NCBI GenBank assembly: GCA_964478285.1
Contig: CAYZHE010000011.1
Location: 4,226-68,225 of the forward strand
DNA: 64,000 nucleotides
DNA from: an uncultured Burkholderiaceae bacterium
GTDB lineage: Bacteria; Pseudomonadota; Gammaproteobacteria; Burkholderiales; Burkholderiaceae_C
Reading direction: 5' to 3'
Shown: positions 26,961 to 47,720 of the stretch, piece by piece
How positions within the stretch are numbered: position 1 is the stretch's first letter
Layout: each line of letters opens with the position of its first letter
Position numbers and translations under genes: made by a program
The notes under the pieces: model-generated
The model's input: only the letters and a program-made list of their open reading frames with translations
Told to the model about the DNA's origin: nothing
The model's database searches: none

Positions 26961-27785
26961 TCAAGCCAGCGCTTTACAAATGTGCGCCGTTGGATTGCTT
27001 TGATTCATGGTGTAGAAATGCAAACTTGGCGCACCGCCGCGAATCAATTGCTCGCACACCCGCACCATGACCTCATGGCCAAACGCCTTGATCGACGCTA
27101 CATCGTCACCGTAACCTTGGAGTCGCTGGCGTATCCATCGCGGGACGTCTGCGCCGCACATGTCAGAAAAACGGATCAGTTGCGAACTGTTGGTGATTGG
27201 CATGATGCCTGGCACGATCGGAATACTCACACCGGCAGCATTCACCTCATCGACAAACCGAAAATACGCATCTGGATTGAAAAAGTATTGGGTGATTGCG
27301 CTATCAGCCCCAGCCTTGGCTTTGGCGATAAATGCATTCAAGTCAGCCTCGGCGCTGCGAGCCTGGGGATGCACTTCGGGGTAAGCCGCCACTTCAATAT
27401 GAAATGCATCACCGAACGTGGCGCGAACGAACGACACCAAATCGGCCGCGTAATGGAACTCACCTCCAGCCCCATACCCACTCGGCAAATCACCGCGCAA
27501 TGCGACCAACCGCCGCACCCCCATGGCCTGCAATTGTTCGAGTCGCTCCTTCACCGAGACTTGGGTCGCCCCGATACAGGAAAAGTGGGCGGCCGCCTCA
27601 TACCCTTCGGACTGGATGGCCGCGACCGTCGCGAACGAGCCCTCTTGCGTCGAGCCACCCGCACCGTAAGTCACCGAGCAAAATTGCGGCTTCAAGGCAT
27701 AAAGGGCTTGCCGAGCCACTGCCAGCTTGGCGGCAGCCTCATCCGTTTTGGGCGGAAAAAATTCAAAGCTAATCGGCAGGTTCAC
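26961..27785 (-). CDS. metF: Methylenetetrahydrofolate reductase
   Basis: ISFEFFPPKT...VTYGAGGST...HFSCIG are MetF motifs. The GTG start at 27785 is preceded by GGAG. Confidence 0.9.
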   Translation of the reverse strand: MNLPISFEFFPPKTDEAAAKLAVARQALYALKPQFCSVTYGAGGSTQEGSFATVAAIQSEGYEAAAHFSCIGATQVSVKERLEQLQAMGVRRLVALRGDLPSGYGAGGEFHYAADLVSFVRATFGDAFHIEVAAYPEVHPQARSAEADLNAFIAKAKAGADSAITQYFFNPDAYFRFVDEVNAAGVSIPIVPGIMPITNSSQLIRFSDMCGADVPRWIRQRLQGYGDDVASIKAFGHEVMVRVCEQLIRGGAPSLHFYTMNQSNPTAHICKALA

Positions 27786-27954
27786 TGCGCACTCCGTTGA
27801 CTTGCTGTCAATTCAAGTCGTGAAAGAGCAAGACGCATTTGCGCCCCGCTGTATCTATTGGATCTAGGCCATTGGCCAGCCGCCTCTCAGCCCAATCATG
27901 GGGAAGAGACGCTGGCATTTTGACATGGCTTGACCGCTCACGCGGTCAGCCAGA

Positions 27955-29391
27955 TCAGTAGCGGTAAGCGTGGGGCTTGTAGGGACCTTCCACCGTCACT
28001 CCGATGTAGGCCGCCTGTGCGGGTGTCAACTCGGTCAACTGTGCATTCAAGGTCGAAAGCTGCAAACGCGCCACCTTCTCATCCAAATGCTTGGGGAGCA
28101 CGTAGACCTGACCGACAGCGTAAGCGTCAGGCCTGGTGAACAACTCGACTTGCGCCAAGGTTTGGTTGGCAAAAGAGCTGCTCATGACATAACTGGGGTG
28201 TCCAGTGCCACAGCCCAAGTTCACCAGGCGCCCCCTCGCCAACAAAATGATGCGGTGGCCGTCAGGGAAGACAACGTGGTCCACTTGGGGCTTGATCTCT
28301 TCAAAGCGGCAGAGCTCTTCTAACTTGGCCACCTGGATTTCATTGTCAAAGTGACCGATGTTGCACACAATGGCTTCGTCGTGCATTTTGGACATGTGCT
28401 CGTACGTGATGACGTCGCGGTTGCCTGTCGTGGTTACAAAGATATCTGCCTTGTCCGCTGCCCAGTCCATGGTCACTACACGGTAGCCTTCCATGGCCGC
28501 CTGCAGAGCACAAATGGGATCGACTTCGGTCACCCAGACCTGCGCAGACAATGCGCGCAACGCTTGTGCGCTGCCCTTGCCGACATCGCCATATCCGCAG
28601 ACGACGGCAACTTTGCCCGCGATCATGACGTCCGTCGCGCGCTTGATGCCATCGACCAAAGACTCGCGACAGCCATACAGGTTATCGAATTTGCTCTTGG
28701 TCACAGAGTCATTCACGTTGATCGCGCGCAAGCGCAGTGTGCCTTTGGCGGACATCTCGTTGAGGCGATGGACACCAGTGGTGGTTTCTTCGGTTACGCC
28801 AATGATGTTGGCAAGGCGACGGCTATACCAAGTGCTGTCCTGGGACAGTTTAGCCTTAATGGCAGCAAACAAAATGGTTTCTTCCTCGCTGCTGGGGTTG
28901 GCCAATACCGACAAATCTGTTTCGGCTTGCGTACCCAAGTGCATGAGCAACGTGGCATCACCCCCGTCGTCAAGAATCATATTGGGGCCTTCTTCGGGCG
29001 TACCCTTGGCGCCATTGAATTCAAAAATACGGTGGGTGTAGTCCCAGTAATCTTCGAGCGTTTCACCCTTGACCGCAAAAACAGGGGTACCGTTGGCAGC
29101 AATCGCAGCGGCGGCGTGGTCTTGCGTTGAGTAGATGTTGCAAGAAGCCCAGCGCACATCAGCGCCCAGTTCTTTCAAGGTCTCAATCAGGACTGCCGTT
29201 TGAATGGTCATGTGCAAGGAACCCGTGATGCGGGCGCCCTTGAGCGGCAGGGATGCAGCGAGTTCACGGCGGATCGCCATCAAACCTGGCATCTCGGTTT
29301 CAGCGATTTGGATTTCTTTTCGACCCCAACCTGCCAAAGAAATATCGGCAATGATGGATTGGTTCACAGGGGCGTCTACAACGGCGTTCAT
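27955..29391 (-). CDS. ahcY: Adenosylhomocysteinase
   Basis: [26 protein letters not shown]...[15 protein letters not shown]...HFDNEI is canonical AhcY. ATG 29391 has GGAG 6 nt upstream. Confidence 0.95.
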
Positions 29392-29434
29392 GGTTTTCTC
29401 CGGTTGGTGTTGCACAGCACCACGCTTGGAGGTT

Positions 29435-30966: not shown

Positions 30967-31036
30967 GCGCTGATCACAGCACTCTGCGCCACAATACCAA
31001 TGACCCATGGCGACAGGCCATGCTCCGGAGAATGAA

Positions 31037-32017
31037 ATGAACGCCGCTTTGCCCCTGTTGTTCGCCTTGATCGTGCTTTGGCTGTTGGTCAAGCGCCTCA
31101 CTATCGGCTACACCGTCGACGTCAGCGCAACCATCGAGGCGCCGCAAGCGCACGTGGATGTAATGATCGGTGACTTTGAACATTGGCTGCAATGGAACCC
31201 CTGGCTGATGCAAGAACCTGACGCCCAAATCACACTTGTATCACCTGACGCAATCGGCGGCGAATACCGTTGGCAGGGTCGCTTGATCGGCGCTGGAGTG
31301 ATCCGCCACTTGAGCCGAGCACCAGCCCACCAATTCAACATGGCGTTGAGCTTCTTGCGCCCGTTCAAGGCGCACTCACGCCTCGTCTTTGTGACCACTG
31401 CGCTGGACGACCAGCGCACCGAGGTCCGCTGGAAAATGCAAGGTCGCCTGCCTTTGATGATGGCACCCATGCGCACTTGGATGAGCAAAATGCTGGCAGT
31501 CGATTTCGAATTGGGATTGGCACGCCTCGGGGGTTACGCCAACCCACAATCCCCTCACCCTGTGATCACCTTCGGCGAGCGTGAAGACCGCGCGTCGTTT
31601 CACGCATTGGCGTCTAGCCACCACACCAGTTTGACCCATTTGCCAGAGGTGGTTGGCCCCGCCTTTGAAGCTTTGGTTGCCATCGCCAATGGCGCCATCA
31701 GCGACGCTCCCATTGCGGTGTATCACCGCATCGATGGCAAATCCAACTCGGTAGAAATGGAGGCAACCCTACCCGTAGAAGAGACCACGCCAGGGGCAGT
31801 GTTGATTCGCGGTGGCTACTATTTCAAGACGGTCCTGCAAGGTGACTATCAATTTTTGAAAGTCGCCTGGCACGCTGCCTACGGTCAGGCTCGGATGCGC
31901 AAATACAAATGGGATTCCAGCAGCCCAGCCCTTGAACGTTATGTGATCGGCCGAGCTCAATCGAATAACAGCAACGACTGGGTCACTGAGCTCTATATAC
32001 CCATCAAGGAGTCATAA
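31037..32017 (+). CDS. Membrane-anchored SRPBCC (START/Bet v1-like) plus GyrI-like small-molecule-binding domain fusion protein
   Basis: It has an N-terminal TM helix (LPLLFALIVLWLLV), a polyketide-cyclase/SRPBCC-like ~150 aa, and a C-terminal GyrI-like/AraC-effector-binding-like domain ending ALERYVIG...NDWVTELYIPIK. GGAG lies 6 nt before ATG 31037. Confidence 0.7.
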   Translation: MNAALPLLFALIVLWLLVKRLTIGYTVDVSATIEAPQAHVDVMIGDFEHWLQWNPWLMQEPDAQITLVSPDAIGGEYRWQGRLIGAGVIRHLSRAPAHQFNMALSFLRPFKAHSRLVFVTTALDDQRTEVRWKMQGRLPLMMAPMRTWMSKMLAVDFELGLARLGGYANPQSPHPVITFGEREDRASFHALASSHHTSLTHLPEVVGPAFEALVAIANGAISDAPIAVYHRIDGKSNSVEMEATLPVEETTPGAVLIRGGYYFKTVLQGDYQFLKVAWHAAYGQARMRKYKWDSSSPALERYVIGRAQSNNSNDWVTELYIPIKES

Positions 32018-32020
32018 GCC

Positions 32021-32377
32021 ATGCCTGTGTCTTTGTGGACGGCACTCAAAGTCATTCCTTGGAAGGACGTGGTGGATGCAGCCCCCGCTGTGGTTGCAGC
32101 CGCGAAGGCCCTGCGCAAAGGTCGTCCTGAAACACCCGCTGCGCCGAGCGCGGGTACCTCACTAGAACCGCAGGTATCACAAGTGCTGCGCGAGCAATCA
32201 GATCGGATCGCTGCGCTCGAGGCGACACTGGGCGAATTGGCGGAGCACCATGTTCGGCTGATCACCGCCATCGATGTATTGCGCACGCGCACCCGATGGC
32301 TGATGGCGGGTGTTGGCATCGCCCTTGGCATGGCGCTGCTGCTCGCGTACCGACTCGGTCAAACACTCAATATGTGA
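32021..32377 (+). CDS. Small hypothetical tail-anchored coiled-coil protein
   Basis: This 118-aa protein has AAGGAG 9 nt upstream and starts 4 nt after the preceding stop. It has a central heptad-like stretch (QSDRIAALEATLGELAEHHVRLITAIDVLR) and a C-terminal TM helix (WLMAGVGIALGMALLLAY). I recognise no family. Confidence 0.5.
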   Translation: MPVSLWTALKVIPWKDVVDAAPAVVAAAKALRKGRPETPAAPSAGTSLEPQVSQVLREQSDRIAALEATLGELAEHHVRLITAIDVLRTRTRWLMAGVGIALGMALLLAYRLGQTLNM

Positions 32378-32433: not shown

Positions 32434-35400
32434 TCACAGCAGCGGCGCGATTGCTCTACCCGTATGCGTTGCGGCCTTGACCAAGCCCTCAGGCGTGGTG
32501 GATGCGACCAACTGCCCCCCCTGTTTACCGCCCTCTGGCCCCAAGTCCAACACCCAATCCGCTTCCGCAATGACATCGAGGTCATGCTCAATCACGACCA
32601 CACTGTGCCCCCCGTCCACCAACCGGTGCAAGACCCGAATAAGTTTCTCAACATCACTCATGTGCAAGCCCACGGTGGGTTCATCCAGCACATAAAGCGT
32701 GTGAGGCGCCTTTTGACCGCGGCGACCGACCTCATCGCGCACTTTGGTCAGCTCCGTGACCAATTTGATGCGCTGAGCCTCTCCCCCCGACAGGGTCGGC
32801 GATGGTTGGCCCAGCGTCAAATAACCCAGTCCTACATCTTTCAACAGCTGCAAGGGATGGGCGATCGCAGGCATCGCCGCAAAAAACTCAACTGCCTCAT
32901 CCACCTCCATTTGCAGCACATCACCAATGTGTTTGCCCCGCCAGGTCACCGCAAGTGTTTCAGGATTGAACCGCATACCGTGACAGGTTTCACACAAAAC
33001 TTTGACGTCGGGTAAAAAACTCATTTCCACAGTCCGCATACCCTGACCTTCACAGGTGGGGCAGCGGCCCTCACCCGTGTTGAACGAGAAGCGCGCTGCA
33101 CCATAGCCTCGCGCTTGAGCCTCCAGCGTGCCGGCAAACAACTTGCGCACCACATCCCAGAATCCGATGTAAGTTGCGGGGCATGATCGCGGCGTCTTTC
33201 CTATCGGCGTCTGATCAACCTCTAGAACGCGGTCAACTGCAGCGACGCCCTCAATGCGTGCGCAGCCCTGCCAGTTCATAGATGCGCTTTTATCGCGCCG
33301 CTGACCCACCACTGTGGCCATGTTTTGCAGCAGCACGTCGCGCGCTAAAGTTGACTTACCAGAGCCAGAAACCCCCGTCACGGCCACCAGTCGGTACAGC
33401 GGTATATCGGCGTCCACTTGTTGCAAATTGTGCAAACTCGCACCTTTGACTGCCAACCACTCCCCCTCAGTCCGATTGACAGAACGGCGCGGTTGCAAGG
33501 GATGACGCATGACGTCGCGCAAATAACGGCCAGTCAAAGAGCCATCGTGATTCAAAAGCTCTTGAACCGTGCCCTGCGCCACGACAGTACCACCTCGCTT
33601 GCCAGCCCCCGGACCGATATCAATCACATGGTCCGCTCGTCGAATGGTGTCTTGGTCATGTTCCACGACAACCAATGTATTGCCCTTGCTGCCCAGGCGC
33701 TGCAGTGCATCGAGCAAAATCTGGTTGTCTCTGGCATGCAGGCCTATGGTGGGCTCATCGAGCACGTAACACACGCCCTGCAAGTTGCTGCCCAACTGCG
33801 CAGCCAATCGAATGCGTTGCGCCTCCCCACCACTCAATGTGGGGGCCCCTCGATCCAGCGTCAAATAGCCCAGCCCCACGTCCTGTAAGAACTGGAGTCT
33901 CGACTCGATCTCCGGCAATAAATCTCGAGCGATTTGGCCAGCGCGACCATCCAGTTTCAGTGCTTGTACCCACGCATACACCTCAGCCACAGACAATCGC
34001 GCAATTTCATGAATTCCCACTCCTTCAAACCGAACCGCACGGGCTTGTGGATTGAGTCGGGTACCAAGACATGCTGGACATTCGCCCTCACCCACGCCAT
34101 CGAGCTCTGGCTCTGCAAAACTTTGCTCGCGGCCCCGCTGATCCGAACTGAACAGGGTGTCGTCCAACTCAGCGCGCTGGGCTTTGGACAAGGGTTTGCC
34201 CGTGCCAACGCAATCCGGACACCAGCCGTGCTTGCTGTTGTAGGAGAACAATCTTGGGTCAAGTTCTGGGTAGCTTGTCGCGCAAACAGGGCACGCCCGT
34301 AAGCCAGAGATCACCTCAATCTGTCCAAGGCCGACGGTGCTTTTGCCTGAGGTCATGGCATGAGCCAGTCCATCCAGCGGCGCCAGCAAATGCACCACAC
34401 CCTTACCTAAAGTCAGTGCGGTGAGCAGCAGATGCTTGACTTGCGCCTCCTCGTTCGGCTGTACCACAGCATCACCGATCGGCAGTTCTATGGTGTGTTC
34501 TTTGAAACGATCTATGCGCGGAAATCCATTGGTTGGCAGGAACTCGCCGTCGACACGCAGGTGGCTGTAACCCCGAGGCCGCGCCCACTCTGCAAGCTCG
34601 GTATAGACGCCCTTGCGGTTGACCACCAAAGGTGCAAGCACGCCAATGTGCTGACCACGGTAGTGGCGCATCACATGTGCCACCATTTGCTCAGGCGTTT
34701 GAGGAGCCACCAGAGCGCCGTCATGAACACAATGCTGCGCACCGAGTTTCACGAAAAGCAAGCGCAAGAAATGCCAAACCTCTGTCGTCGTACCAACGGT
34801 ACTCTTGTGGCCGCCGCGAGACAGGCGTTGCTCAATTGCAACCGTGGGCGGTATGCCGTAAACCGCATCGACCTCGGGTCGGCCCGCCGGTTGGACGATC
34901 GAGCGGGCGTAGGCGTTCAAGCTTTCTAAGTAGCGGCGTTGCCCTTCGTTGAACAAGATATCAAACGCCAGGGTTGACTTGCCTGACCCCGAGACGCCGG
35001 AAATCACGTTGAACTTGCCACGTGGAATATCGACAGACAATCCTTTGAGGTTGTGCTCTTGTGCATTGATGATTTGGATGGCAGGCGAATTGGTTTCGCG
35101 ACGCCGTGCCGGGCGCAACCGGGGAACTGGTGACTCACCCACACCCTTGCCACCCAGACCCATGGCCTCTTCATACTCCCTCAGTGCCTTGGCTGTATGC
35201 GACTTGGGGTGATCGCGCAGGCTCTCGGGCGTGCCCTGGGCCACAATCAAACCACCCGCGTCGCCACCCTCGGGCCCCAGATCAATGAGCCAATCTGCGC
35301 AGCGAATCACGTCTAAATTGTGCTCGATCACCACAATCGAATGTCCCGCCTCTAACAGCTTGCGCAAACTGCGCATCAACTTGGCGATATCGTCAAAGTG

Positions 35401-38154
35401 CAATCCTGTCGTCGGCTCGTCAAACAAAAACAGTTGCCCCTTGCGCGCAGTCGGTTGTCGGCTTTTGCTCGCGGTTTGAGCGGCTTGGGCCAGAAAGCCT
35501 GCCAACTTGAGACGCTGAGCCTCGCCTCCAGACAACGTTGGTACTGGCTGCCCCAAACGCACGTAATCCAAACCGACATCAACGATGGGTTGCAGGGCTC
35601 GAATCACTTCCGAATCTTTGGCAAACACTTGCACGGCTTGTGCAACGGTGAGTTCTAGAACATCCGCCACATTGAGTGGTAAATCTGTCTCTGGGTGGCG
35701 GCGATCACTCGCTCGCACCTCCAATACTTCGGGTCGATAGCGCTGACCATTGCAGTCAGGGCAACGGAGATACACATCCGATAAAAACTGCATTTCAACG
35801 TGTTCAAAACCTGATCCGCCACAAAGTGGGCAGCGACCATCACCACTGTTGAAACTGAATTTGCTCGAGGTGTATCCACGCTGGCGAGCCAAAGGTTGGT
35901 CGGCGAACAGTGCGCGAATGCCATCCCAGGCGCCGACATAGCTGATCGGATTAGAACGTGCCGTTTTGCCAATTGGTGACTGGTCGACAAACACCACGCC
36001 ACTCAAATGATCACCGCCGAGCAAGCGCTGGTGCGCGCCGGGTGATTCAGTGGCGACACCAAACTGACGCATCAGAGCTGGCGCCAGCACATCCTGAATC
36101 AATGTGGACTTGCCCGAACCCGAGACCCCAGTGATACAAACCAAACGCTGTAACGGAATGTCGACTGAGATGTTCTTCAAGTTGTGTTCCGTGACGCCCT
36201 CAAGAATCAATCGGGGCGTCGATTCGGAAACCATTCGTTTGAGGCCCATGCCAACCTGTTTGCGATTGCCCAAATAGGCACCCGTCAACGTATCAGCATG
36301 GCGCAATGCTTCGGGCGTACCGTCAAACACAATGTCACCCCCTCGCTCGCCAGGACCAGGTCCCATGTCCAAGACGCGGTCAGCCGCCAACATCACGGCT
36401 GGGTCGTGCTCAACGACCACCAAGGTATTGCCGGAGTCTCTGAGTTTGAGCATGGCTTCGTTGATTCGATCCATGTCACGGGGGTGTAAACCGATGCTCG
36501 GCTCATCCAACACAAACAAGGTGTTCACCAAAGAGGTACCGAGGGCAGTGGTCAGGTTGATGCGCTGCACTTCACCACCTGACAACGTGCGGCTTTGGCG
36601 ATCGAGAGTGAGGTAACCCAAGCCCACGTTGCACAGGTACCGCAGGCGCGATGTGATCTCCTCGAACAACAAGCTTTGCGCACGAGACTGGGCATCGTGG
36701 CGGTCTAAAGTCGTGGTTTGTAACTTTTCAAAAAATTTGAGCAGCGTGCTCATTGGCATCAGCATCAAGTCGTGCAAGCTCAAGCCAGGCAGAGATTCCA
36801 GTTGGGCTCTTGTCCATCTAACTCCCGCTGGCAAGAACCGAGCAGATGGCGCCATCACTGCATTCGCCTGTGCGTCATCGCCCAAGCGCCAAAGCAAGCT
36901 TTCGGTTTTCAGCCGTGCCCCTGCGCAAACCGGACAGGTTGTGTAACTGCGGTACTTAGAGAGCAATACTCGGATGTGCATCTTGTAGGCTTTGCTCTCG
37001 AGGTATTCGAAGAAACGCTTGATGCCATACCACTGCTGGTTCCATTTGCCTTTCCAATGGGGCGAACCGTTGATAACCCAATCTTTTTGCTCCTGGGTGA
37101 GCAGGCTCCAAGGGGTATCGCGTGGGACACCGGCCGTCTCAGCATGGCGCAAGAGGTCATCCTGACATTCCTTCCAAGCCGGTGTTTGGATGGTCTTGAT
37201 GGCGCCAGTGCGGAGTGTCAAGCGATGATCTGGGATCACCAACCCGTAATCCACACCAATGACACGACCAAACCCTCGGCACGTCTCACAGGCACCGACT
37301 GCTGAGTTGAACGAGAACATGGAGGGCGTTGGCGCTGCATAACGCAAGTCACTGTCTGGGCAGTGGAGACCTGTCGAAAACTTCCATACCTCGGGCTCGG
37401 CGTCCAGCGCATCTTGCGGGGTCGCCACGACTTGCATTTGCCCGCTGCCTCGCTTGAGCGCCAACTCGATCGCCTCCATGGCACGCGGGCGATCGACACC
37501 AGGCCATTTGAATCGATCGATGACGACGTCCAACACCTTGCGCACGCCCTCAGCACTGCTGACTTCGCGCTCGGCGTGCACCCGCGTAAAACCGCTCGCT
37601 GCGAGCCACTGCTGGACCTCCTCAGCGGTGGTCTTCGCTGGCAACTCGACAGCAAAGGTCACGTGAATGCGCCAACTTTGAACGCCCGCGCGCTGTGTGA
37701 TCTGCTCAAAAATAGTGTCAGGCGTGTCGTGTTGAACGGGCTGGGCGGTATCGCGGTCGAATAGCTGGGCACTGCGGGCGAACAAAAGCTTCAAGTGGTC
37801 GTTCAGCTCAGTCATCGTGCCAACGGTAGACCGTGAGCTGCGCACTGGATTGGTTTGATCGATCGCAATGGCTGGCGGCACCCCCTCGACCGCATCGACG
37901 GCTGGCTTATCCATGCGATCCAGAAACTGGCGCGCGTAGGCAGAAAACGTTTCTACATAGCGCCGTTGCCCTTCGGCGAACAACGTATCGAACACCAGAC
38001 TTGATTTGCCTGATCCGCTCGGTCCTGTAAATACGGTCAGTTCACCTGTGCGGATATCAATATCTAAGTTTTTTAGATTGTGCTGGCGAGCACCCCGTAT
38101 GCGAATCACGCCGGCTTCTGCATGCATTGGACTGGTTTTTTTAGGGAAGGTCAT
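32434..38154 (-). CDS. Tandem (double) UvrA-like protein of ~1907 aa: two fused UvrA modules with four ABC nucleotide-binding sites
   Basis: The ORF is uninterrupted. Residue numbers count from the track Met at 38313. It has four Walker A motifs (GPSGSGKS 97, GVSGSGKS 729, 1106, 1648), four LSGGE signatures, UvrA-type CxxC zinc knuckles, and IRIRGARQHNLKNLDIDI / IQIINAQEHNLKGLSVDI module starts. ATG 38154 (MTFPKK) is preferred because the upstream extension overlaps the usp gene and its terminator. Confidence 0.9.
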   Translation of the reverse strand: MTFPKKTSPMHAEAGVIRIRGARQHNLKNLDIDIRTGELTVFTGPSGSGKSSLVFDTLFAEGQRRYVETFSAYARQFLDRMDKPAVDAVEGVPPAIAIDQTNPVRSSRSTVGTMTELNDHLKLLFARSAQLFDRDTAQPVQHDTPDTIFEQITQRAGVQSWRIHVTFAVELPAKTTAEEVQQWLAASGFTRVHAEREVSSAEGVRKVLDVVIDRFKWPGVDRPRAMEAIELALKRGSGQMQVVATPQDALDAEPEVWKFSTGLHCPDSDLRYAAPTPSMFSFNSAVGACETCRGFGRVIGVDYGLVIPDHRLTLRTGAIKTIQTPAWKECQDDLLRHAETAGVPRDTPWSLLTQEQKDWVINGSPHWKGKWNQQWYGIKRFFEYLESKAYKMHIRVLLSKYRSYTTCPVCAGARLKTESLLWRLGDDAQANAVMAPSARFLPAGVRWTRAQLESLPGLSLHDLMLMPMSTLLKFFEKLQTTTLDRHDAQSRAQSLLFEEITSRLRYLCNVGLGYLTLDRQSRTLSGGEVQRINLTTALGTSLVNTLFVLDEPSIGLHPRDMDRINEAMLKLRDSGNTLVVVEHDPAVMLAADRVLDMGPGPGERGGDIVFDGTPEALRHADTLTGAYLGNRKQVGMGLKRMVSESTPRLILEGVTEHNLKNISVDIPLQRLVCITGVSGSGKSTLIQDVLAPALMRQFGVATESPGAHQRLLGGDHLSGVVFVDQSPIGKTARSNPISYVGAWDGIRALFADQPLARQRGYTSSKFSFNSGDGRCPLCGGSGFEHVEMQFLSDVYLRCPDCNGQRYRPEVLEVRASDRRHPETDLPLNVADVLELTVAQAVQVFAKDSEVIRALQPIVDVGLDYVRLGQPVPTLSGGEAQRLKLAGFLAQAAQTASKSRQPTARKGQLFLFDEPTTGLHFDDIAKLMRSLRKLLEAGHSIVVIEHNLDVIRCADWLIDLGPEGGDAGGLIVAQGTPESLRDHPKSHTAKALREYEEAMGLGGKGVGESPVPRLRPARRRETNSPAIQIINAQEHNLKGLSVDIPRGKFNVISGVSGSGKSTLAFDILFNEGQRRYLESLNAYARSIVQPAGRPEVDAVYGIPPTVAIEQRLSRGGHKSTVGTTTEVWHFLRLLFVKLGAQHCVHDGALVAPQTPEQMVAHVMRHYRGQHIGVLAPLVVNRKGVYTELAEWARPRGYSHLRVDGEFLPTNGFPRIDRFKEHTIELPIGDAVVQPNEEAQVKHLLLTALTLGKGVVHLLAPLDGLAHAMTSGKSTVGLGQIEVISGLRACPVCATSYPELDPRLFSYNSKHGWCPDCVGTGKPLSKAQRAELDDTLFSSDQRGREQSFAEPELDGVGEGECPACLGTRLNPQARAVRFEGVGIHEIARLSVAEVYAWVQALKLDGRAGQIARDLLPEIESRLQFLQDVGLGYLTLDRGAPTLSGGEAQRIRLAAQLGSNLQGVCYVLDEPTIGLHARDNQILLDALQRLGSKGNTLVVVEHDQDTIRRADHVIDIGPGAGKRGGTVVAQGTVQELLNHDGSLTGRYLRDVMRHPLQPRRSVNRTEGEWLAVKGASLHNLQQVDADIPLYRLVAVTGVSGSGKSTLARDVLLQNMATVVGQRRDKSASMNWQGCARIEGVAAVDRVLEVDQTPIGKTPRSCPATYIGFWDVVRKLFAGTLEAQARGYGAARFSFNTGEGRCPTCEGQGMRTVEMSFLPDVKVLCETCHGMRFNPETLAVTWRGKHIGDVLQMEVDEAVEFFAAMPAIAHPLQLLKDVGLGYLTLGQPSPTLSGGEAQRIKLVTELTKVRDEVGRRGQKAPHTLYVLDEPTVGLHMSDVEKLIRVLHRLVDGGHSVVVIEHDLDVIAEADWVLDLGPEGGKQGGQLVASTTPEGLVKAATHTGRAIAPLL

Positions 38155-38224
38155 GGGCACAGCTTGGCGTGAAATGAAGAGGTCAACCATTCTAGGGATT
38201 ACCCAGGGCAACCGCTGTAACCCA

Positions 38225-38248
38225 CAAAAAAGCGCACCCGAGGTGCGC
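38225..38248 (-). terminator. Rho-independent terminator after usp
   Basis: The minus strand reads GCGCACC-TCG-GGTGCGC followed by TTTTTTG. It separates usp from the double-uvrA gene. Confidence 0.6.
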
Positions 38249-38296
38249 CTTTGAACGACCGCAAAGCAGTCAACGATACAGCGTACGCTGCTGAAA

Positions 38297-38734
38297 TCAG
38301 GGCTTGATGACAAGCACCGGCAAGTCGCTGTGGGTCAACACTTTTTGAGTGACACTGCCCAAAATCAGGGCCTTCATCCCCTGACGCCCGTGCGATCCCA
38401 TCACAATCAAATCGCAATGCTCGGCTTCAGCCGTGTCCAATATGCCCTCATAGGTCGCGCTGCGTTCGATGGTATCGCCCTGGTATCGCACGCCCAATGC
38501 CTCCGCTTCGATGCGAATGTCAGTGAGGGCCTTTTGGGCAGCCAGCTGAACCTCTTCCATGTAAGCCTGGAGTCCTAGCGCGGAAGCCTCCCCCAATCCG
38601 ATATAAGGAAACGGATCAATCACATACACACCCACAACAGAGGCGCCCTGCAACTTGGCCATCTCGAGTGCATCCTTGGCAGCCTTGTTGGCCAACTCAG
38701 AGCCGTCCGTGGGAATCAAGATTCTGTTGAACAT
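38297..38734 (-). CDS. Universal stress protein (UspA family)
   Basis: This 145-aa protein has ILIPTDGSE...IVMGSHGRQG...LGSVTQKVLTHSDLPVLVI. Confidence 0.85.
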   Translation of the reverse strand: MFNRILIPTDGSELANKAAKDALEMAKLQGASVVGVYVIDPFPYIGLGEASALGLQAYMEEVQLAAQKALTDIRIEAEALGVRYQGDTIERSATYEGILDTAEAEHCDLIVMGSHGRQGMKALILGSVTQKVLTHSDLPVLVIKP

Positions 38735-40265: not shown

Positions 40266-41177
40266 TCAGGCAGCGGCCCGCTGCTTGAGTTTGGCGACTG
40301 AGACTCGCCCATTGGGCGCACGACCCAAAAAACGGCTGATGGCGTCTGCAGTGTCGATCAACTGTTCCAAATCAATGCCTGTGTCGATGCCCATGCCGTG
40401 CAACATATAGACCACGTCTTCGGTCGCAACATTGCCGGTCGCGCCTTTGGCATAAGGGCAGCCTCCCAGCCCAGCAACAGACGTCTCAAACACCCGAATC
40501 CCCAGTTCTAAAGATGCCAAAGTGTTGGCCAAGGCTTGGCCGTAAGTGTCGTGAAAGTGACCGCTGACTTGCGCCACATCGTAGTGCCGCAATGCGGCCT
40601 CCATAGCCGCCTGCACCCGCCGCGGGGTACCGACTCCAATCGTATCTGCCACAGCGATGCGCTCTACGCCGATGTCTTTCATGAGGCGGGCCACGTGTGC
40701 CACCGCCTCTGCAGACACATCCCCCTCATAAGGACAACCCACTGCGCATGAAATGGCGCCGCGCGTCGCTACTCCTGCAGCTCGAGCGGCTTCAACCACA
40801 GGGGCAAAGCGCTCCATCGACTCCGCCACCGAACAGTTGATGTTTTTCTGACTAAACGCCTCGCTGGCAGCACCAAACACCACCACCTCTCCGGGATGGC
40901 TCTCGAGAGCTGACTCTAGGCCCTTCATGTTTGGCGTCAACACGCTGTACACCACACCCGGGCTACGTTCCAAGCCAGACATCACGTCTGTGGCGTCAGC
41001 CATTTGTGGCACCCATTTGGGGCTGACAAAGCTGGTGGCTTCCAGATGGCGAATCCCCGCCCGGACCAGCCTGTGTATCAAATCGATCTTGACTGCCGCG
41101 GGAACGGCTTGTTTTTCATTTTGAAGCCCGTCACGCGGGCCAACATCAATGATGTCAACGGTAGTAGGTAATGCCAT
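40266..41177 (-). CDS. liuE: Hydroxymethylglutaryl-CoA lyase
   Basis: VGPRDGLQNE...GCPYA...TGNVATEDVVYML are canonical HMGL motifs. Confidence 0.9.
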   Translation of the reverse strand: MALPTTVDIIDVGPRDGLQNEKQAVPAAVKIDLIHRLVRAGIRHLEATSFVSPKWVPQMADATDVMSGLERSPGVVYSVLTPNMKGLESALESHPGEVVVFGAASEAFSQKNINCSVAESMERFAPVVEAARAAGVATRGAISCAVGCPYEGDVSAEAVAHVARLMKDIGVERIAVADTIGVGTPRRVQAAMEAALRHYDVAQVSGHFHDTYGQALANTLASLELGIRVFETSVAGLGGCPYAKGATGNVATEDVVYMLHGMGIDTGIDLEQLIDTADAISRFLGRAPNGRVSVAKLKQRAAA

Positions 41178-41199
41178 GGCGAAGATTGGAATTCAGTTT

Positions 41200-42132
41200 T
41201 CAGTATGAGCGAATCGGATCAACCACGCCAACCATCGGGTTGTTGAACAACCAAGCTTCGATGTTTCTCGTGATGCTTTGTATTGCCTCAGGCATCCAGG
41301 TTTGGGCGGCAATATGGGGGGTGCCGATGACTTGGGGGAGTTGCCTCAAAGCGTGGTCTGGCGGCAAGGGTTCCTCTTCAAACACATCCAATGCGGCGCC
41401 CGCTAGATGTCCGCTTTGGATGGCAGCCACCAATGCATCTGTATCGATCAGCCCACCGCGTGCGAGGTTGATGACGTAAGCCTCTCGAGGCAACAGCCCC
41501 AAATTGTGCGCATTCAGCACACGGTGGGTCTCAGGCGTGAGAGGCAACAGCAAGACCAACACTTGGGAAGCACTTAAAAACGCAGGCAACCCCTCGAATC
41601 CGTGGTGATGAACCAGGTCAGTGCCGCTTTTGGCAGAGCGACTCCATGCATGCACAGCATAGCCCCTCGATTTCAGGGCTTGCGCGACTTTTGATCCCAA
41701 CGCGCCGTACCCCATGATCCCGATGCTCCACGTCCCTGCAGGACGCACAGCGCGTGGATTCCAATCGCCAGCCCGCCATTCGTGCTCATACCGGGCGAAT
41801 GCCCGGGTGTGGCGCGTCACGGCATACAGCGCATAGTCCACCATCTGTTCGGCCATGCCCGCGTCTTCCAAGCGCACAACCTGCATGGCTGCTGGGCGCT
41901 TCAGCCGCCACAAAACGTCTACGCCGGCCCCCAAGTGAAACAATACTTTCAATCCGGGTTGCTCGTCCAACAACTGTTGAGGAGGTGACCATGCGATCGC
42001 CAGTTCGGCTGCAACTTCACCTGGCTGCCATTTCACAACATCCCAATCAGGCAAAGCGTGTTGCAGCGATGTCAACCACTGCGCCTCTTGCGCAGAAGGA
42101 TGATGAAACAAGATGCGTTTGCGAAGGGTCAT
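41200..42132 (-). CDS. D-isomer-specific 2-hydroxyacid dehydrogenase (glyoxylate/hydroxypyruvate reductase A-like)
   Basis: It has the NAD-binding motif IGIMGYGALGSKVA, the catalytic region NLARGGLID...TPHIAA, and is 310 aa. Confidence 0.8.
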   Translation of the reverse strand: MTLRKRILFHHPSAQEAQWLTSLQHALPDWDVVKWQPGEVAAELAIAWSPPQQLLDEQPGLKVLFHLGAGVDVLWRLKRPAAMQVVRLEDAGMAEQMVDYALYAVTRHTRAFARYEHEWRAGDWNPRAVRPAGTWSIGIMGYGALGSKVAQALKSRGYAVHAWSRSAKSGTDLVHHHGFEGLPAFLSASQVLVLLLPLTPETHRVLNAHNLGLLPREAYVINLARGGLIDTDALVAAIQSGHLAGAALDVFEEEPLPPDHALRQLPQVIGTPHIAAQTWMPEAIQSITRNIEAWLFNNPMVGVVDPIRSY

Positions 42133-42157
42133 GCAGGGCCTAGTAGGTCTGAGGGTA

Positions 42158-44167
42158 TCAGTCTGCCATCGTCAACAACTCCGCTCCGTCACCAACTTGA
42201 TCTCCAGGCGCAATCATGACCTCACCGATGACTCCGTCTTTGGAAGCAACAATGCTGTGTTCCATTTTCATCGCCTCAAGCACGGCCAGCAATTGGCCTT
42301 TTTTCACAACATCCCCAGGCACCACATCGACACGCAACACCTTGCCCGGCATCGGTGCCTTGAGGTGACCGCCGCCTGCATCATCATCGCTAGCCCGATC
42401 CATAGGGTCGACCCAGGTCAATGATGCAGCGCCTTCCCGCGTGAATACGTGGCACTGAGCACCGACCACTTCTACATCCACTCGTCCGCGCCAGTTGCCC
42501 ACTTGGATATCCCCGCGCTGATCACGGCGCCAATCACGCAGCAGCCAGCCTCTCGCGTCATCATCTGCAAACAAACGCAACTCACCATCTCGAGCGACCC
42601 GCAATTCCAACCGGTGCAATACATCGCCACACTTGACCTCGAACCATTGCTGACGTACGCCAAAACCAACCCAATGGTCGGCCCGACTCCAAGGATCAAC
42701 ACCTTCCCGTTCCGTCACTTGCGCTAGTTGATGCAACACCGCTGCACCCCAAACAACCTGCAGTGGCAATGAGGGTTGACCGAACAGTTGTGCTGCCTCG
42801 CGCTCGATCAATGCTGTGTCTAGCGTGGGCAGCTGAAAAGATGGTGTCCGAATCAAGCGACGCAAAAATTGGACATTGGTGTGCACCCCGACGATTCGGG
42901 TGAGTGCGAGCGCCGCGTCTAATTTGGCCAGGGCCTCCGTGCGGTCTGCGCCGTGCACAATCAGCTTGGCAACCATCGAGTCATAAAACGGCGATATCTC
43001 ATCCCCCTCTCGAACGCCTGCATCCCAACGCACTGGCGCCCGGTCAAACGCGCTGGAAGGCGGTGGACTGAGTCGATGCAAACGACCAATCGCAGGTAAA
43101 AATTGTTGGTCGGGATTTTCTGCACAAATGCGGGCCTCAATCGCGTGTCCTTTGACTTGCACATCAGATTGCTGCATCGGCAGGCGTTCGCCGCTGGCCA
43201 CACGCAACTGCCATTCCACCAAATCCAAACCAGTGATCGCCTCTGTGACTGGATGCTCGACTTGCAAACGAGTGTTCATTTCCATGAAATAAAACTTCAT
43301 GGTCTCCGGACTGTCATAAGCAGTTTGCTCAACAATGAATTCAACCGTCCCCGCTCCAACATAGTTCACGGCTTTTGCGGCTGCAATCGCCGCAGCGCCC
43401 ATGGCCTCCCTAAGCGCCTCCGGCATACCCGGCGCAGGGGCTTCTTCCAGCACCTTTTGATGCCGACGCTGGACCGAACAATCGCGTTCATACAGATGAA
43501 TCACGTTGCCATGTTGATCGCCAAACACTTGGATCTCAATGTGCCGAGGACGCTGGACGTATTTTTCAATCAATACCGCGTCATCCCCAAAACTCTTGCT
43601 GGCCTCGCGTTGGCAAGACGCCAATGCTGCGTTGAAGTCGGTCGGCGCATTGACGACGCGCATCCCTTTGCCACCACCGCCCGCACTTGCCTTGATCAAC
43701 ACCGGATAGCCAATGTTGTCAGCCTGAGACTGCAGAAATTTTGGCTCCTGATTTTTCCCGTGATAGCCCGGTACCAAAGGGACACCGGCAGACTCCATCA
43801 AACGCTTGCTTTCTGCTTTGAGGCCCATTGCCTCGATTGACGATGCCGACGGGCCGATAAACACCACCCCCGCTGCCAAACAGGCTTGCGCAAACGCTGC
43901 GTTTTCAGATAAAAAACCATATCCTGGATGGATTGCCTGCGCACCTGTCTCTTTGGCCGCTTGGAGGATCGCCTCCCAACGCAAGTAACTGTCAGCCGGC
44001 GCGCTTCCCCCGATATGTACAGCCTCATCACAAGCCTGAACATGGGCGGCGCACGCATCTGCATCAGAGTACACCGCGACCGTTCGGATGCCCATGCGGC
44101 GAGCCGTCGCTGCCACGCGACACGCAATCTCACCTCGGTTGGCAATCAATATTTTGCTGAACATCAT
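42158..44167 (-). CDS. liuD: 3-methylcrotonyl-CoA carboxylase alpha subunit (biotin carboxylase plus BCCP domain)
   Basis: The N-terminus KILIANRGEIACRV, the ATP-grasp domain and the C-terminal biotinyl motif LEAMKMEH support the call. The start ATG shares a base with the liuC stop (TGATG). Confidence 0.9.
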   Translation of the reverse strand: MMFSKILIANRGEIACRVAATARRMGIRTVAVYSDADACAAHVQACDEAVHIGGSAPADSYLRWEAILQAAKETGAQAIHPGYGFLSENAAFAQACLAAGVVFIGPSASSIEAMGLKAESKRLMESAGVPLVPGYHGKNQEPKFLQSQADNIGYPVLIKASAGGGGKGMRVVNAPTDFNAALASCQREASKSFGDDAVLIEKYVQRPRHIEIQVFGDQHGNVIHLYERDCSVQRRHQKVLEEAPAPGMPEALREAMGAAAIAAAKAVNYVGAGTVEFIVEQTAYDSPETMKFYFMEMNTRLQVEHPVTEAITGLDLVEWQLRVASGERLPMQQSDVQVKGHAIEARICAENPDQQFLPAIGRLHRLSPPPSSAFDRAPVRWDAGVREGDEISPFYDSMVAKLIVHGADRTEALAKLDAALALTRIVGVHTNVQFLRRLIRTPSFQLPTLDTALIEREAAQLFGQPSLPLQVVWGAAVLHQLAQVTEREGVDPWSRADHWVGFGVRQQWFEVKCGDVLHRLELRVARDGELRLFADDDARGWLLRDWRRDQRGDIQVGNWRGRVDVEVVGAQCHVFTREGAASLTWVDPMDRASDDDAGGGHLKAPMPGKVLRVDVVPGDVVKKGQLLAVLEAMKMEHSIVASKDGVIGEVMIAPGDQVGDGAELLTMAD

Positions 44168-44958
44168 CACGTCCCCAGCCACTTTGGGGCGCGCTTTTCA
44201 AGGAACGACGACACACCCTCTTTCCCCTCATCTGTCGCGCGAATGTCCGCAATCCGGCGTGCCGTCTCTGACCGCAATTCCGCATCGATCTGCCGCTGGC
44301 CAACATCACGCACCAACTGCTTTGATGCCCTCACAGCTGCAGGGCCACAGCCCAGAATGGCGTCGACGATTGATTGGATGCGCGCATCGAGTTGCTCTGC
44401 CGGGACAATTTCATGCACCAAACCGCAATCTGCTGCCACCTGAGCACTGAATCGCTCGGCCGTCACAAAGTAACGTTGCGCCGCTCGGTACCCCATCGAC
44501 CGAACCACATAAGGGCTGATGGTTGCAGGGATCAAACCGAGTCGAACCTCACTGAGGCAAAACGTGGCCTCAGGCACACTCACCACGATGTCTGACTGGG
44601 CGCACAAGCCCATGCCTCCCGCATAACAATCCCCATGGACCCGCCCAACGATCGGTACCTGGCACGCTTCGATCATGGCCATCATGTCCGCCATGGCTTG
44701 AGCATCCCGGCGATTGTCCTCCCAATCGTAATCAGCCATTGCCCGCATCCAATTGAGATCTCCGCCCGCACAAAACGCTTTGCCATGCCCACCGAGCACC
44801 ACCACCTTCGCTTGCGGATCGCCGTGGATGCGCTCAAAAGCCAGATGCAATGCCTGGATGACCTCGCTGTTGAATGCGTTGCGAACCTCCGGACGATTCA
44901 AATAAACGCGCCATACACCCGCATCGCTGCGTTCGACATCTAATAAATTTTGTGACAT
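44167..44958 (-). CDS. liuC: Enoyl-CoA hydratase (methylglutaconyl-CoA hydratase)
   Basis: It is crotonase fold (GHGKAFCAGGDLNWM) and sits between the MCCase beta and alpha genes. ATG 44958 has GAGG 6 nt upstream. Confidence 0.85.
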   Translation of the reverse strand: MSQNLLDVERSDAGVWRVYLNRPEVRNAFNSEVIQALHLAFERIHGDPQAKVVVLGGHGKAFCAGGDLNWMRAMADYDWEDNRRDAQAMADMMAMIEACQVPIVGRVHGDCYAGGMGLCAQSDIVVSVPEATFCLSEVRLGLIPATISPYVVRSMGYRAAQRYFVTAERFSAQVAADCGLVHEIVPAEQLDARIQSIVDAILGCGPAAVRASKQLVRDVGQRQIDAELRSETARRIADIRATDEGKEGVSSFLEKRAPKWLGT

Positions 44959-44966
44959 GGTTGACC

Positions 44967-46574
44967 TCACATGCGAAAGACGCCAAATCGCGTCTCAGGA
45001 ATCGGTGCATTCAACGCGGCAGACAGTCCCAACGCCAACACGCGTCGAGTGTCTGCTGGGTCGATGACGCCGTCGTCCCACAGGCGGGCGCTGGCGTAAT
45101 AGGGGTGGCCTTGGAGCTCGTATTGTTCTTTGATCGGCGCTTTGAATGCTGCTTCTTCGTCTGGGCTCCACTGACCACCTTTGGATTCGATGCCATCGCG
45201 CTTGACGGTCGCCAAAACGCTGGCGGCTTGTTCTCCGCCCATCACGCTGATGCGCGCATTCGGCCACATCCAAAGGAATCGCGGGGAGTAGGCGCGTCCG
45301 CACATCCCATAGTTGCCAGCACCAAAGCTGCCTCCAATGATGACCGTGAATTTCGGCACCTGTGCGGTAGCGACCGCCGTGACCATCTTGGCACCGTTGC
45401 GAGCAATACCCTCGTTTTCATATTTGCGCCCGACCATGAAACCGGTGATGTTCTGTAAAAAAACCAAAGGGATTTTTCGCTTGGCACACAGCTCAATGAA
45501 ATGCGCGCCTTTGAGCGCACTTTCAGAAAACAATATCCCGTTGTTGGCCACGATCCCCACCGGCATCCCTTCAATATGTGCAAACCCACACACCAGTGTG
45601 GCGCCGTAGCGCGACTTGAATTCGTCAAACTCACTGTGGTCTGCAATGCGGGCGATGATTTCACGCACATCGAAAGGCTGACGAGTGTCGGTCGGAATCA
45701 CGCCGTATAACTCTTTGGGATCAAAACGAGGTGCATGGGGAGTTCGCAAAGCGATATCGATGGTTTTTCGACGGTTCAAATTGCCAACAGACTGGCGGGC
45801 CAGTGCAATCGCGTGGACGTCGTCTTGCGCCAAGTAATCAGCGACGCCAGACAAGCGTGTATGCACGTCACCGCCGCCCAAATCCTCTGCACTCACGATC
45901 TCGCCTGTGGCGGCCTTGACCAGCGGTGGTCCACCTAAAAAAATCGTGCCCTGGTTTTTGACAATGATGGCCTCATCACTCATCGCCGGCACGTACGCGC
46001 CCCCTGCGGTGCAAGAGCCCATGACCACCGCAATTTGCGCAATCCCTTTCGCACTCATATTGGCTTGATTGAAAAAGATGCGTCCAAAGTGCTCTCGATC
46101 TGGGAACACCTCATCTTGGTTGGGCAAATTGGCCCCCCCTGAGTCGACCAAATACACACAGGGCAATTGGTTTTCTTCAGCAATTTCCTGCGCTCGCAAA
46201 TGTTTTTTGACTGTCATGGGGTAATAGGTCCCCCCTTTCACTGTGGCGTCATTGCAGACAATGACACACTCCACCCCCGCGATGCGACCAATCCCAGTGA
46301 TGATCCCAGCACTCGGTGCAGCGCCCTCGTACATGCCGTGCGCAGCCAAAGGTGACAGCTCCAAAAAAGGAGTGCCCGGGTCAAGCAAACGCTGCACACG
46401 TTCACGAGGCAACAACTTGCCGCGAGCGACGTGCTTGGCTCTGGCCGCCTCCCCGCCGCCGAGTGATGCTTGATGAACTTGCGCGTTCAAATCGTCGACC
46501 AATGCCTGCATCGCTTGCGCATTCGCAGCGAAGGCGGCCGACCGTGTGTTGAGTTGCGTTTCGAGAACTGTCAT
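44967..46574 (-). CDS. liuB: 3-methylcrotonyl-CoA carboxylase beta subunit (carboxyltransferase)
   Basis: It is 535 aa from ATG 46574 ([12 protein letters not shown]...) and carboxyltransferase-like throughout ([27 protein letters not shown]). The track start 46793 is an over-extension. Confidence 0.9.
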
Positions 46575-46670
46575 GGAGATCCAACCGAGGTTGAAAGAAA
46601 AAACAGCACCCAGCTTAATGCGAATTAGTGCGCAATGTGCGACACTACGGTTGCAATTTCTGCCAAACCA

Positions 46671-47720
46671 ATGAATAAGCCTAAACCCATCATTGCCGGC
46701 CAAAAGGCCACGCCGATGCACTACGCGAGGCAGATGGTGTCGGCACTCGAGGCCAAAGGTATGGCGTGGATGGACATCATCGAAGAGGTGCAAATTGCGC
46801 CAGAACTTTTACACAAGGCTTCAGCCCGGATCACCGCGACTCAAATGGAGTCTTTGTCCGCACTGGTGATGAGGCGACTGAATGATGAGGCACTGGGGTG
46901 GTTTGAACGCAACTTGGCCTGGGGAAGCTACGGCATGCTCGCGCGAGCCTCCTTGAACGCCACGAATCTCGAAGTGGCACTCAAACGGTGGTGCCGGCAC
47001 CACGGCCTCCTCACTCAGGCGGTGACGATGCGCGTGTTTGTGGAGCGTGATAGCGCGAGCATTGAGTTGGATGCACATGGCGTTGCCCCCGCAAACATCG
47101 AGTTTTGTTCGGTCACTCTGCTTCGCAACATCATGGGCTTTGCCAGTTGGATCATCGACTCTCGGATTGCGATGCGACACGCCGCATTTGCCTATCCACC
47201 GCCTGAGCACGTCGGTGCCTACGCGGACCTGTTTCCCTGCGAAGTGAACTTTCACGCGCCACTGACCCGTGTGTCATTTGATGCGGCGTACTTGCGCCTG
47301 CCAACGTGTCGACACGAAGATGAGTTGAACGCCATGTTGCAAAGGGCTTTGCCACTGACTGTGAGGCACTACCCCAAAGACCGCCTGCTCGTGGAACGCG
47401 TACAGCGGCTGTTGCGCACCTCACCGAAACTGTGGCGCGACGCAGAATCGGTGGCAGATGCACTCTCGATTTCGGCTCGAAGCCTACACCGCCAATTGGC
47501 CGCAGAAGGCGCCCAATGGCAGGCTCTGAAAACCGAAGAGCGTATGCGCATGGCGAGCTCTTTGCTGCGGTATACCGACCGAGGTTTGAAACAAATCGCA
47601 GACGCCAGTGGCTTTGAGGATGTGAAAAGCTTTTCTCGCGCGTTCAAAGCCTGGAGCCACACCAGCCCCAACCAATTTCGCCGCGACCAGCGAAACGTGG
47701 TGGCTCAAACCGGGCGTTGA
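46671..47720 (+). CDS. AraC-family transcriptional regulator
   Basis: The C-terminal double HTH reads [17 protein letters not shown]...[25 protein letters not shown], and the gene is divergent from liuB. The start is uncertain (46635, 46671 or 46716). Confidence 0.8.

Follow-up and report, generated by a model that had tools for sequence, protein, structure and literature searches.

In UvrA, the UvrB-binding domain is tethered via a flexible zinc-finger region, and two insertion domains clamp the DNA (PMC12796330). E. coli UvrA from which the insertion domain has been deleted is still active, with impaired rejection of undamaged DNA, and R216A/E222A is the published mutant of its UvrB-interaction surface; our definition of the docking surface rests on R216 and E222 as given in that work (PMC3025350). 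UvrA2–UvrB1 and UvrA2–UvrB2 complexes have both been solved, in structures published in 2025. Which of the two is the working sensor is debated, as is whether two UvrB molecules on opposite strands identify the damaged strand (PMC7835731). Some Burkholderiales carry an additional uvrA. In Cupriavidus metallidurans, CHR2 bears 'a second excinuclease gene uvrA2' (PMC2864759), and a 2004 survey recorded two uvrA genes and one uvrB in Ralstonia solanacearum (PMC518961). Our search of the open literature found no paper describing or testing tandem UvrA proteins, 'class III' UvrA or duplicated UvrA. Here, we analyze a gene for such a tandem protein, carried on a 64 000-nt stretch of DNA (the window) from an uncultured Burkholderiaceae bacterium (contig CAYZHE010000011.1), and show that its two UvrA modules differ in a way that is conserved across Burkholderiales.

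Results

Two UvrA modules with a common core

The mechanical open reading frame (ORF), 32434–38313 on the reverse strand, has 1959 codons counted from TTG and encodes two UvrA units in tandem, with four GSGKS and four LSGGE motifs in the whole chain. It scores 1935.8 bits against the NCBIfam UvrA equivalog NF001503 (cut-off 1147), which places it in the UvrA superfamily. Residue numbers used here follow this ORF and are 62 higher than those of the probable protein. Residues were mapped by pairwise, MAFFT and HMMER alignments onto E. coli UvrA of strain MG1655 (Zn1, C120/H123/C253/C256; Zn2, C277/C280/C406/C409; Zn3, C740/C743/C763/C766), supplemented by phmmer searches of the PDB and by Pfam profiles. 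An earlier note on this DNA had described a fused pseudo-dimer whose modules lost different parts. The motif positions that it listed were all confirmed (FDRDT at 185, VLDVVIDRFKW at 260, HCPDS at 317–321, CETC at 342, CPVC at 460, HCVHD at 1194, CPVC at 1341, CPDC at 1365 and CPAC at 1412). Coordinates of the features are collected in Table 1.

To assess conservation, we used the 120 best protein clusters and a genome scan covering one genome per GTDB species. The scan returned at least 596 matching stretches, from which 80 loci were examined and 76 species aligned. The equivalents of the Walker A lysines K37 and K646, of G502, and of the Zn2 and Zn3 cysteines vary little or not at all among the 76 species in either module. 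Each module has eight cysteines that align to the eight Zn2 and Zn3 cysteines of E. coli. Of the four DNA-binding arginines, the equivalents of R712 and R724 are conserved in both modules, and those of R722 and R730 vary. By these alignments, all four ATPase sites, both Zn2 sites, both Zn3 sites and the signature-II DNA-binding arginines of the query are intact.

The N module is ∼39% identical to E. coli UvrA and aligns to B. stearothermophilus UvrA through both appendages. An AlphaFold2 (AF2) model of the C module has a predicted local distance difference test score (pLDDT) of 71.8, and its best Foldseek matches are the UvrA structures 3uwx, 2r6f and 3pih. Identity between the two modules is only ∼34–44%, and neither resembles the other more than it resembles E. 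coli UvrA. This low identity, together with position-wise orthology to distant proteins, rules out a recent tandem duplication.

Insertion domain and docking residues are confined to the N module

The modules part company in their appendages. In the N module, the two Zn2 pairs, whose four cysteines are invariant in the 76 species, flank an insertion segment of 114–115 amino acids (aa) in all orthologs; the corresponding spacing in E. coli is 125 aa. The proposal that this module keeps a full insertion domain holds in part: the 114 aa are there and match Pfam UvrA_DNA-bind, but the match spans profile positions 1–72 of 110 only, and the domain is ∼20 aa shorter than that of E. coli. Directly after the second Zn2 pair lies an N-specific segment (residues 466–520, 36754–36918, reverse strand; LLWRLGDDAQANAVMAPSARFLPAGVRW...), of which ∼26 aa have no counterpart in E. 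coli UvrA and 15 of the 55 columns are invariant in the 76 species.

In the C module, by contrast, just 43 aa separate the Zn2 pairs, and UvrA_DNA-bind finds no match there even at E ≤ 10. The alignment of this module to B. stearothermophilus UvrA (2r6f) covers chain residues 24–305 and 418–956 and skips the insertion domain. These data bear out the deletion proposed earlier. A relocated insertion domain was also looked for and ruled out, by the otherwise continuous 2r6f alignment and by the single UvrA_DNA-bind match of the chain. The 43-aa remnant (residues 1369–1411, 34081–34209, reverse strand) measures 42–45 aa in the 76 species, with 10 invariant positions, and by its sequence is no random linker. 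AF2 models it as one short helix followed by a low-confidence loop. Its conserved features across Burkholderiales include the motifs VGTG, QR, DD and GRE.

A second difference concerns the surface that contacts UvrB. The UvrB-binding fold (Pfam UvrA_inter) is present in both modules, which includes the N-module segment that the earlier note had recognized by eye. In the AF2 model, the N-module domain has a pLDDT of ∼65–85 and the same order of helices and strands as its C-module counterpart. Yet the docking residues are conserved in the N module only. There, R277, equivalent to R216, is invariant, and E280 and E283, equivalent to E219 and E222, are E or D in 76 of 76 species. When the query is aligned with its 120 closest clusters (121 sequences), none of the three varies. 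The VVDR motif is likewise kept, with little or no variation. The C module has another sequence in place of VVDR (LPIGD in the query, LP[VI][AG][DS] in orthologs), and the positions of R216, E219 and E222 are taken by Q1291, H1294 and L1297, which vary across the 76 species. On these features, the N module seems equipped to dock UvrB and to clamp DNA, whereas the C module seems equipped to do neither. An insertion of 13 aa, MTSGKSTVGLGQI, further sets the C-module domain (34294–34719, reverse strand) apart from that of E. coli.

Zn1 is altered in both modules

Neither module has the C120/H123/C253/C256 set of class I UvrA. At the first Zn1 pair of the N module, FDRDT stands in place of C120-P-D-H123. 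The register is ambiguous by one residue (D186/T189 by MAFFT, F185/D188 by HMMER), and neither pair is Cys or His. The consensus over the 76 species and 120 clusters is F-D-[RK]-x-T. At the second pair, S321, which replaces C256, is invariant, and C318, the equivalent of C253, occurs in 66 of the 76 species, with S, N or H in its place in the other 10. Three of the four ligand positions thus have no Cys or His, as had been reported for this module, and even the remaining cysteine is dispensed with in some species. The replaced positions are themselves fixed (F185, D186, H317 and S321).

The C module was described as keeping all of its Zn1 ligands. This is true of the three cysteines; the fourth ligand position, however, is Asp1198 and not the histidine cited. 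H1197 is out of register with E. coli His123 and varies (H in 45 species, K in 17, R in 6, N in 5 and F in 2), whereas C1195 shows no variation and 74 of the 76 have D1198. The C-module Zn1 is therefore C1195/D1198/C1341/C1344, or Cys-Asp-Cys-Cys.

It follows that the idea of modules that lost different parts stands as to asymmetry, which is conserved, but not as to a reciprocal division of function: the N module, without Zn1, keeps the docking residues, and the C module has lost them. The N module is thus close to complete, and in the C module both appendages are degenerate.

The asymmetry is conserved in Burkholderiales

Proteins in the 120 clusters are all 1896–1988 aa long and 73–92% identical to the query, and named members belong to Comamonadaceae-type genera. 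With the 80 genome loci included, full-length identity ranges from 67 to 92%. Every locus among the 80 that carries a genus name comes from a Burkholderiales genus. Represented are Comamonadaceae, the Rubrivivax/Roseateles/Sphaerotilus group, Burkholderia, Cupriavidus, Pandoraea, Caballeronia, Mycetohabitans and Candidatus Burkholderia. All 80 carry intact ORFs of ∼1900 aa, those of the leaf-nodule symbionts Candidatus Burkholderia included. The asymmetric pattern is found in 120 of 120 closest clusters and in the 76 species-representative genomes, with the same motif states in Cupriavidus, Burkholderia, Pandoraea and Caballeronia. Because all of these show the same pattern, the asymmetry is conserved and not a matter of chance, and the ortholog survey that had been suggested to tell a fixed pattern from a random one comes down on the side of the former. 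The tandem UvrA is clearly widespread and under selection.

The sole fast-evolving segment is the linker between the modules, with a mean column entropy of 2.27 bits against 0.2–1.1 bits in the domains; residues 1040–1085 (the linker with a slight margin) span 40–70 aa among the 120 clusters.

These observations bear on whether the asymmetry might be neutral decay of a redundant duplicate, with no functional meaning. The ORF is full-length in all of the loci examined (80 of 80) and the catalytic residues are invariant; the remnant in the C module is fixed in length (42–45 aa) and at 10 positions; and what replaced the Zn1 ligands at F185, D186, H317 and S321 is fixed too. Even allowing that Zn1 loss recurs in several tandem lineages (CSSS, DTST), which suggests that Zn1 is dispensable, neutral decay is very improbable and is largely refuted by the conservation data.

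N-to-N and C-to-C orthology with the Burkholderiales tandem UvrA is collinear. The gene is an ortholog of the Burkholderiales tandem paralog, which is annotated either as uvrA2 or as 'excinuclease ABC subunit A, dimeric form'. In Ralstonia, annotated names are 'uvrA', 'uvrA_2' and 'Excinuclease ABC subunit A, dimeric form'. Burkholderia multivorans and Cupriavidus carry the gene on chromosome 2, and 134 Ralstonia records have it on a 2-Mb megaplasmid; in Ralstonia and Cupriavidus the paralog coexists with canonical uvrA. The fusion of two UvrA modules and its asymmetry, as the earlier note had them, are real, and the asymmetry is conserved; the fused form is not new, having been recognized by annotators, and what is new is the conserved one-sidedness. 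In the plasmid collection, 918 records have UvrA-like genes, many below 60% identity; the latter come from Enterobacter, Acinetobacter, Klebsiella, Pantoea and Streptomyces.

An old fusion family and the order of losses

An exhaustive HMMER search with the N module was examined for the best 150 representatives of 50%-identity clusters (P0121–P0270), which are mostly double-length. We mapped the 103 representatives with four Walker A motifs onto E. coli UvrA and found nine appendage architectures. Forty of the 103 share the layout of the query, with both appendages in the N unit and a C unit that keeps the UvrB-binding domain and lacks the insertion domain. In a further 33 both units are complete, and in 17 both are class-II-like; a few are reversed or mixed. 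In a core-only comparison, 24 of the 39 other same-layout representatives had an N module closest to the query N module and a C module closest to the query C module. The family of one complete and one stripped module reaches down to ∼52–55% core identity. It is one old fusion family and not a product of repeated recent duplications.

Tandem UvrA proteins as a whole are diverse, forming at least 103 clusters at 50% identity. Double class-II-like forms are ∼1600 aa long and some others ∼2300 aa; some lack the insertion domain in the N unit instead, and several lineages lack Zn1 in both units (ligand patterns CSSS and DTST).

Pairwise calls of single residues are noisy in divergent domains, and an alignment of 20 distant family members is firmer. 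In this alignment, N modules nearly always keep the DR motif and R216, and C modules nearly always lack them. The same pattern of retention in N and loss in C is the commonest state among same-architecture representatives. Both Zn1 sites of the aligned distant members are Cys4, outgroup N modules have CxxC at the first pair, and loss of the N-module Zn1 is seen only in the Burkholderiales clade. Since the C-module losses are common to distant members and the N-module Zn1 loss is restricted to Burkholderiales, the two differ in age. The C module first lost its insertion domain and its docking residues; loss of the N Zn1 and the Cys-to-Asp change in the C Zn1 followed later, in the Burkholderiales lineage.

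Three representatives deserve mention. P0121, the nearest outgroup to the Burkholderiales clade, has a Cys-Cys-Cys-Asp Zn1 in its N module, which looks like an intermediate towards the complete loss in the query. P0214 is a single unit of 999 aa on an 8.3-kb contig, ∼49% identical to the N module over its full length; it could be an N-type UvrA that stands alone, or else a truncated call. P0176 was considered as a single-unit N-type protein and rejected, its source labeling it partial.

Start codon and neighborhood

The earlier note counted residues from a Met at 38313. The codon there is TTG, and it lies in a 5′ extension (38128–38313, reverse strand) that overlaps the 3′ end of an upstream usp-like gene (38297–38734). 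The ortholog consensus N-terminus, MxMxQGxIRIRGARQ, begins at the equivalent of Met63 (nt 38127), which is probably the real start codon, as read from the sequence; Met54 is possibly an alternative. Given the overlap with the usp-like gene, the hairpin inside the extension and the orthologs that start at Met63, the first 62 codons are almost certainly untranslated. A possible promoter, TTGCCC-N17-TAGAAT, also lies within the extension.

The tandem uvrA is flanked by a leucine-catabolism (liu) cluster and by ahcY-metF (40266–46793 and 26961–29415). These functions were assigned by eye from translations (in the cluster, HMG-CoA lyase, methylcrotonyl-CoA carboxylase subunits and enoyl-CoA hydratase). 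Of the 80 related loci, 13–31 share parts of this neighborhood, a recurrence that points to vertical inheritance in Comamonadaceae. The genes directly adjacent, at 31007–32377, are not conserved. Synteny in Comamonadaceae is limited to the liu cluster and ahcY-metF and yields no operon-level clue.

Table 1. Features of the tandem UvrA gene, in window coordinates
Feature	Residues	Position	Strand	Evidence
Probable tandem UvrA coding sequence, Met63 to stop, 1897 aa	63–1959	32434..38127	-	ORF, ortholog consensus start, hairpin in 5′ extension
Terminator-like hairpin and U-run, downstream of usp-like gene, within ORF 5′ extension		38226..38248	-	Sequence reading; predicted fold -16.2 kcal/mol
N module, complete UvrA unit: Walker A K103 and K735, Zn2, Zn3, G592, DNA-binding arginines	63–1040	35194..38127	-	Alignments to UvrA
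N-module first Zn1 pair position, FDRDT in place of E. coli C120-P-D-H123, no Cys/His	from 185	37747..37761	-	Alignments
N-module UvrB-binding-type domain	190–316	37366..37746	-	Pfam UvrA_inter, 32.1 bits (cut-off 23.3)
N-module VVIDR (D266/R267) and docking helix; R277/E280/E283 = E. coli R216/E219/E222	VVIDR 263–267	37465..37518	-	Alignments
N-module second Zn1 pair position, HCPDS; C318 = E. coli C253, S321 replaces C256	317–321	37351..37365	-	Alignments
N-module Zn2 site, CETC and CPVC, flanking 114-aa insertion (DNA-binding) domain	342–345, 460–463	36925..37290	-	Pfam UvrA_DNA-bind, 37.5 bits
Inter-module linker, variable in length and sequence	∼1041–1079	35077..35193	-	Column entropy
C module, complete UvrA ATPase and DNA-binding core: K1112, K1653, G1508, Zn2, Zn3; no insertion domain	1080–1959	32437..35076	-	Alignments, AF2, Foldseek
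C-module first Zn1 pair, HCVHD; C1195 = E. coli C120, D1198 = H123	from 1194	34720..34734	-	Alignments
C-module UvrB-binding-type domain and second Zn1 pair CPVC	1199–1340, 1341–1344	34282..34719	-	Pfam UvrA_inter, 92.3 bits
C-module Zn2 site, CPDC and CPAC (nt 34069–34080), flanking 43-aa remnant	1365–1368, 1412–1415	34069..34221	-	Alignments, Pfam

Discussion

The anatomy of the modules, its conservation and the order of losses are established by the sequence comparisons; that the two units pair within one chain, bind UvrB and act in repair is what we infer. In the reading that we favor, with a rough probability of 0.5, the protein is a single-chain, one-sided pseudo-dimer that docks one UvrB and serves as an auxiliary nucleotide excision repair sensor beside canonical UvrA. 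The two units of one chain would fold back into the head-to-head arrangement of the canonical UvrA dimer. The N unit alone would supply the DNA-clamping insertion domain and dock UvrB domain 2. The C unit would contribute the second ATPase and DNA-binding half, and its signature-II surface would contact UvrB domain 1b, by analogy with solved UvrA–UvrB complexes. One UvrB, not two, would then be loaded beside the lesion. Zn1 belongs to the flexible tether that holds the UvrB-binding domain; its loss from the N unit came later, in Burkholderiales, and left the domain and its docking residues in place.

Chains might instead pair in trans (N–N, C–C or a domain-swapped N–C), which would give two insertion domains and two UvrB docks per particle and restore symmetry. 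UvrA modules are prone to dimerize, and a linker as variable as this one, and presumably flexible, would leave room for swapping. Yet covalent fusion hugely raises the local concentration for the intramolecular pair, and the division of labor between a complete and a stripped module is conserved down to ∼52–55% core identity, as expected for a constant pair. Pairing in trans is the less economical arrangement, and we regard it as improbable.

Several observations weigh against a one-sided repair sensor. No LexA box (CTGT-N8-ACAG) was found upstream of the gene; across the window, one-mismatch matches to this motif number 15, against 22 expected by chance. No repair gene is a conserved neighbor in the 80 related loci, and the neighbors in Ralstonia are unrelated. 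Coexistence with canonical uvrA is documented for Ralstonia and Cupriavidus, whereas the closest named matches of the query are Comamonadaceae. The AF2 model of the N module, made with a 25-row ortholog alignment, is poor (mean pLDDT of 52, predicted template modeling score of 0.33), and its quality is insufficient to judge D186, H317 and D322 as substitute Zn1 ligands. The N-module UvrB-binding-type domain is the more divergent of the two, with a UvrA_inter score of 32 bits versus 92 bits, so that the predicted UvrB binding depends on a handful of conserved residues. Conversely, the C-module domain has 34 of 142 columns invariant versus 13 of 127 in the N module, and must be selected for some role outside the favored model. 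It may have a different partner or a structural role. A sharper version of the model, in which the particle has one insertion-domain clamp, loads a single UvrB whose place with respect to the lesion is fixed and re-uses the C-module domain for another partner, is doubtful.

The main rival of the three considered is a UvrB-independent, class-II-like ATPase that would scan DNA and either clear or tolerate certain ligands or lesions on it, with its UvrB-binding-type domains re-purposed. Such a role would suit a second, non-essential-looking paralog on secondary replicons, with no SOS box, no repair neighbor and an N-module UvrB-binding-type domain as divergent as its 32 bits indicate. There is precedent in Ecm16, which acts without UvrB, UvrC or UvrD, and other UvrA paralogs add little to UV repair (PMC9328131). 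Class II proteins, however, delete the UvrB-binding domain, which both modules keep here, and no biosynthetic gene cluster lies near the gene in the query window or at the Ralstonia locus. Moreover, the N-module equivalents of R216, E219 and E222, together with VVDR, are held over a wide phylogenetic range, which is hard to explain without UvrB or Mfd. Mfd uses the same UvrA surface as UvrB. On balance, we consider a UvrB-independent role unlikely.

If the sharper version of the model is true, productive damage hand-over needs neither two UvrB molecules nor two insertion domains. With its two halves fused, and the insertion domain and docking residues gone from one half only, the tandem UvrA is a ready-made reagent for the question of UvrA2–UvrB2 versus UvrA2–UvrB1, with stoichiometry and polarity fixed by sequence. 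On the practical side, the gene is labeled simply 'UvrA' in hundreds of Burkholderiales genomes, and inventories of repair genes should keep it separate from the housekeeping gene. The significance is limited in that this is a paralog of a very well-known protein, in a fusion that annotators had already noticed, and that any function is predicted here from sequence.

Each module shares its core with the canonical class I UvrA of E. coli, B. stearothermophilus, M. tuberculosis and T. maritima (2r6f, 3uwx, 3zqj and 3pih), namely two ABC ATPase sites, signature domains, Zn2, the Zn3 hairpin and a UvrB-binding-type domain. An insertion domain and the R216/E222 docking residues are further points in common for the N module alone. 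The query differs from class I in being one 1897-aa chain of two non-identical units, ∼40% identical to each other, and not a homodimeric chain of ∼940–1000 aa, with an N unit that lacks Zn1 and a C unit that has a Cys3-Asp Zn1, no insertion domain and no docking residues.

The long UvrA of NCBIfam NF001885 (PRK00635), which we take to be that of Chlamydia, has a profile of 1809 positions, about twice a single UvrA. The query matches it partially, at 1148.9 bits against a cut-off of 3054, and belongs to a different family. Closer at hand, the 'dimeric form' of the R. solanacearum megaplasmid is ∼69% identical over residues 5–1897 and shows no architectural difference, and uvrA2 on C. metallidurans CHR2 (Rmet_4549) is probably the same tandem paralog. 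Location differs: in Comamonadaceae the gene sits in a conserved chromosomal neighborhood (liu, ahcY-metF), whereas in Ralstonia, Cupriavidus and Burkholderia it is on a secondary replicon.

Class II UvrA proteins (D. radiodurans UvrA2, 2vf7; Ecm16, 7sh1; DrrC) are also paralogs beside canonical UvrA and also lack Zn1. Their defining absence of a UvrB-binding domain is not seen in the query, where UvrA_inter matches both modules: class II deletes the UvrB-binding domain and keeps the insertion domain, whereas here both modules keep the UvrB-binding fold and the C module deletes the insertion domain. In this last respect, the C module is the natural equivalent of the engineered E. coli UvrA Δ290–400. 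The Δ290–400 dimer is without both insertion domains and binds undamaged DNA unproductively (PMC3025350), whereas the natural protein keeps one.

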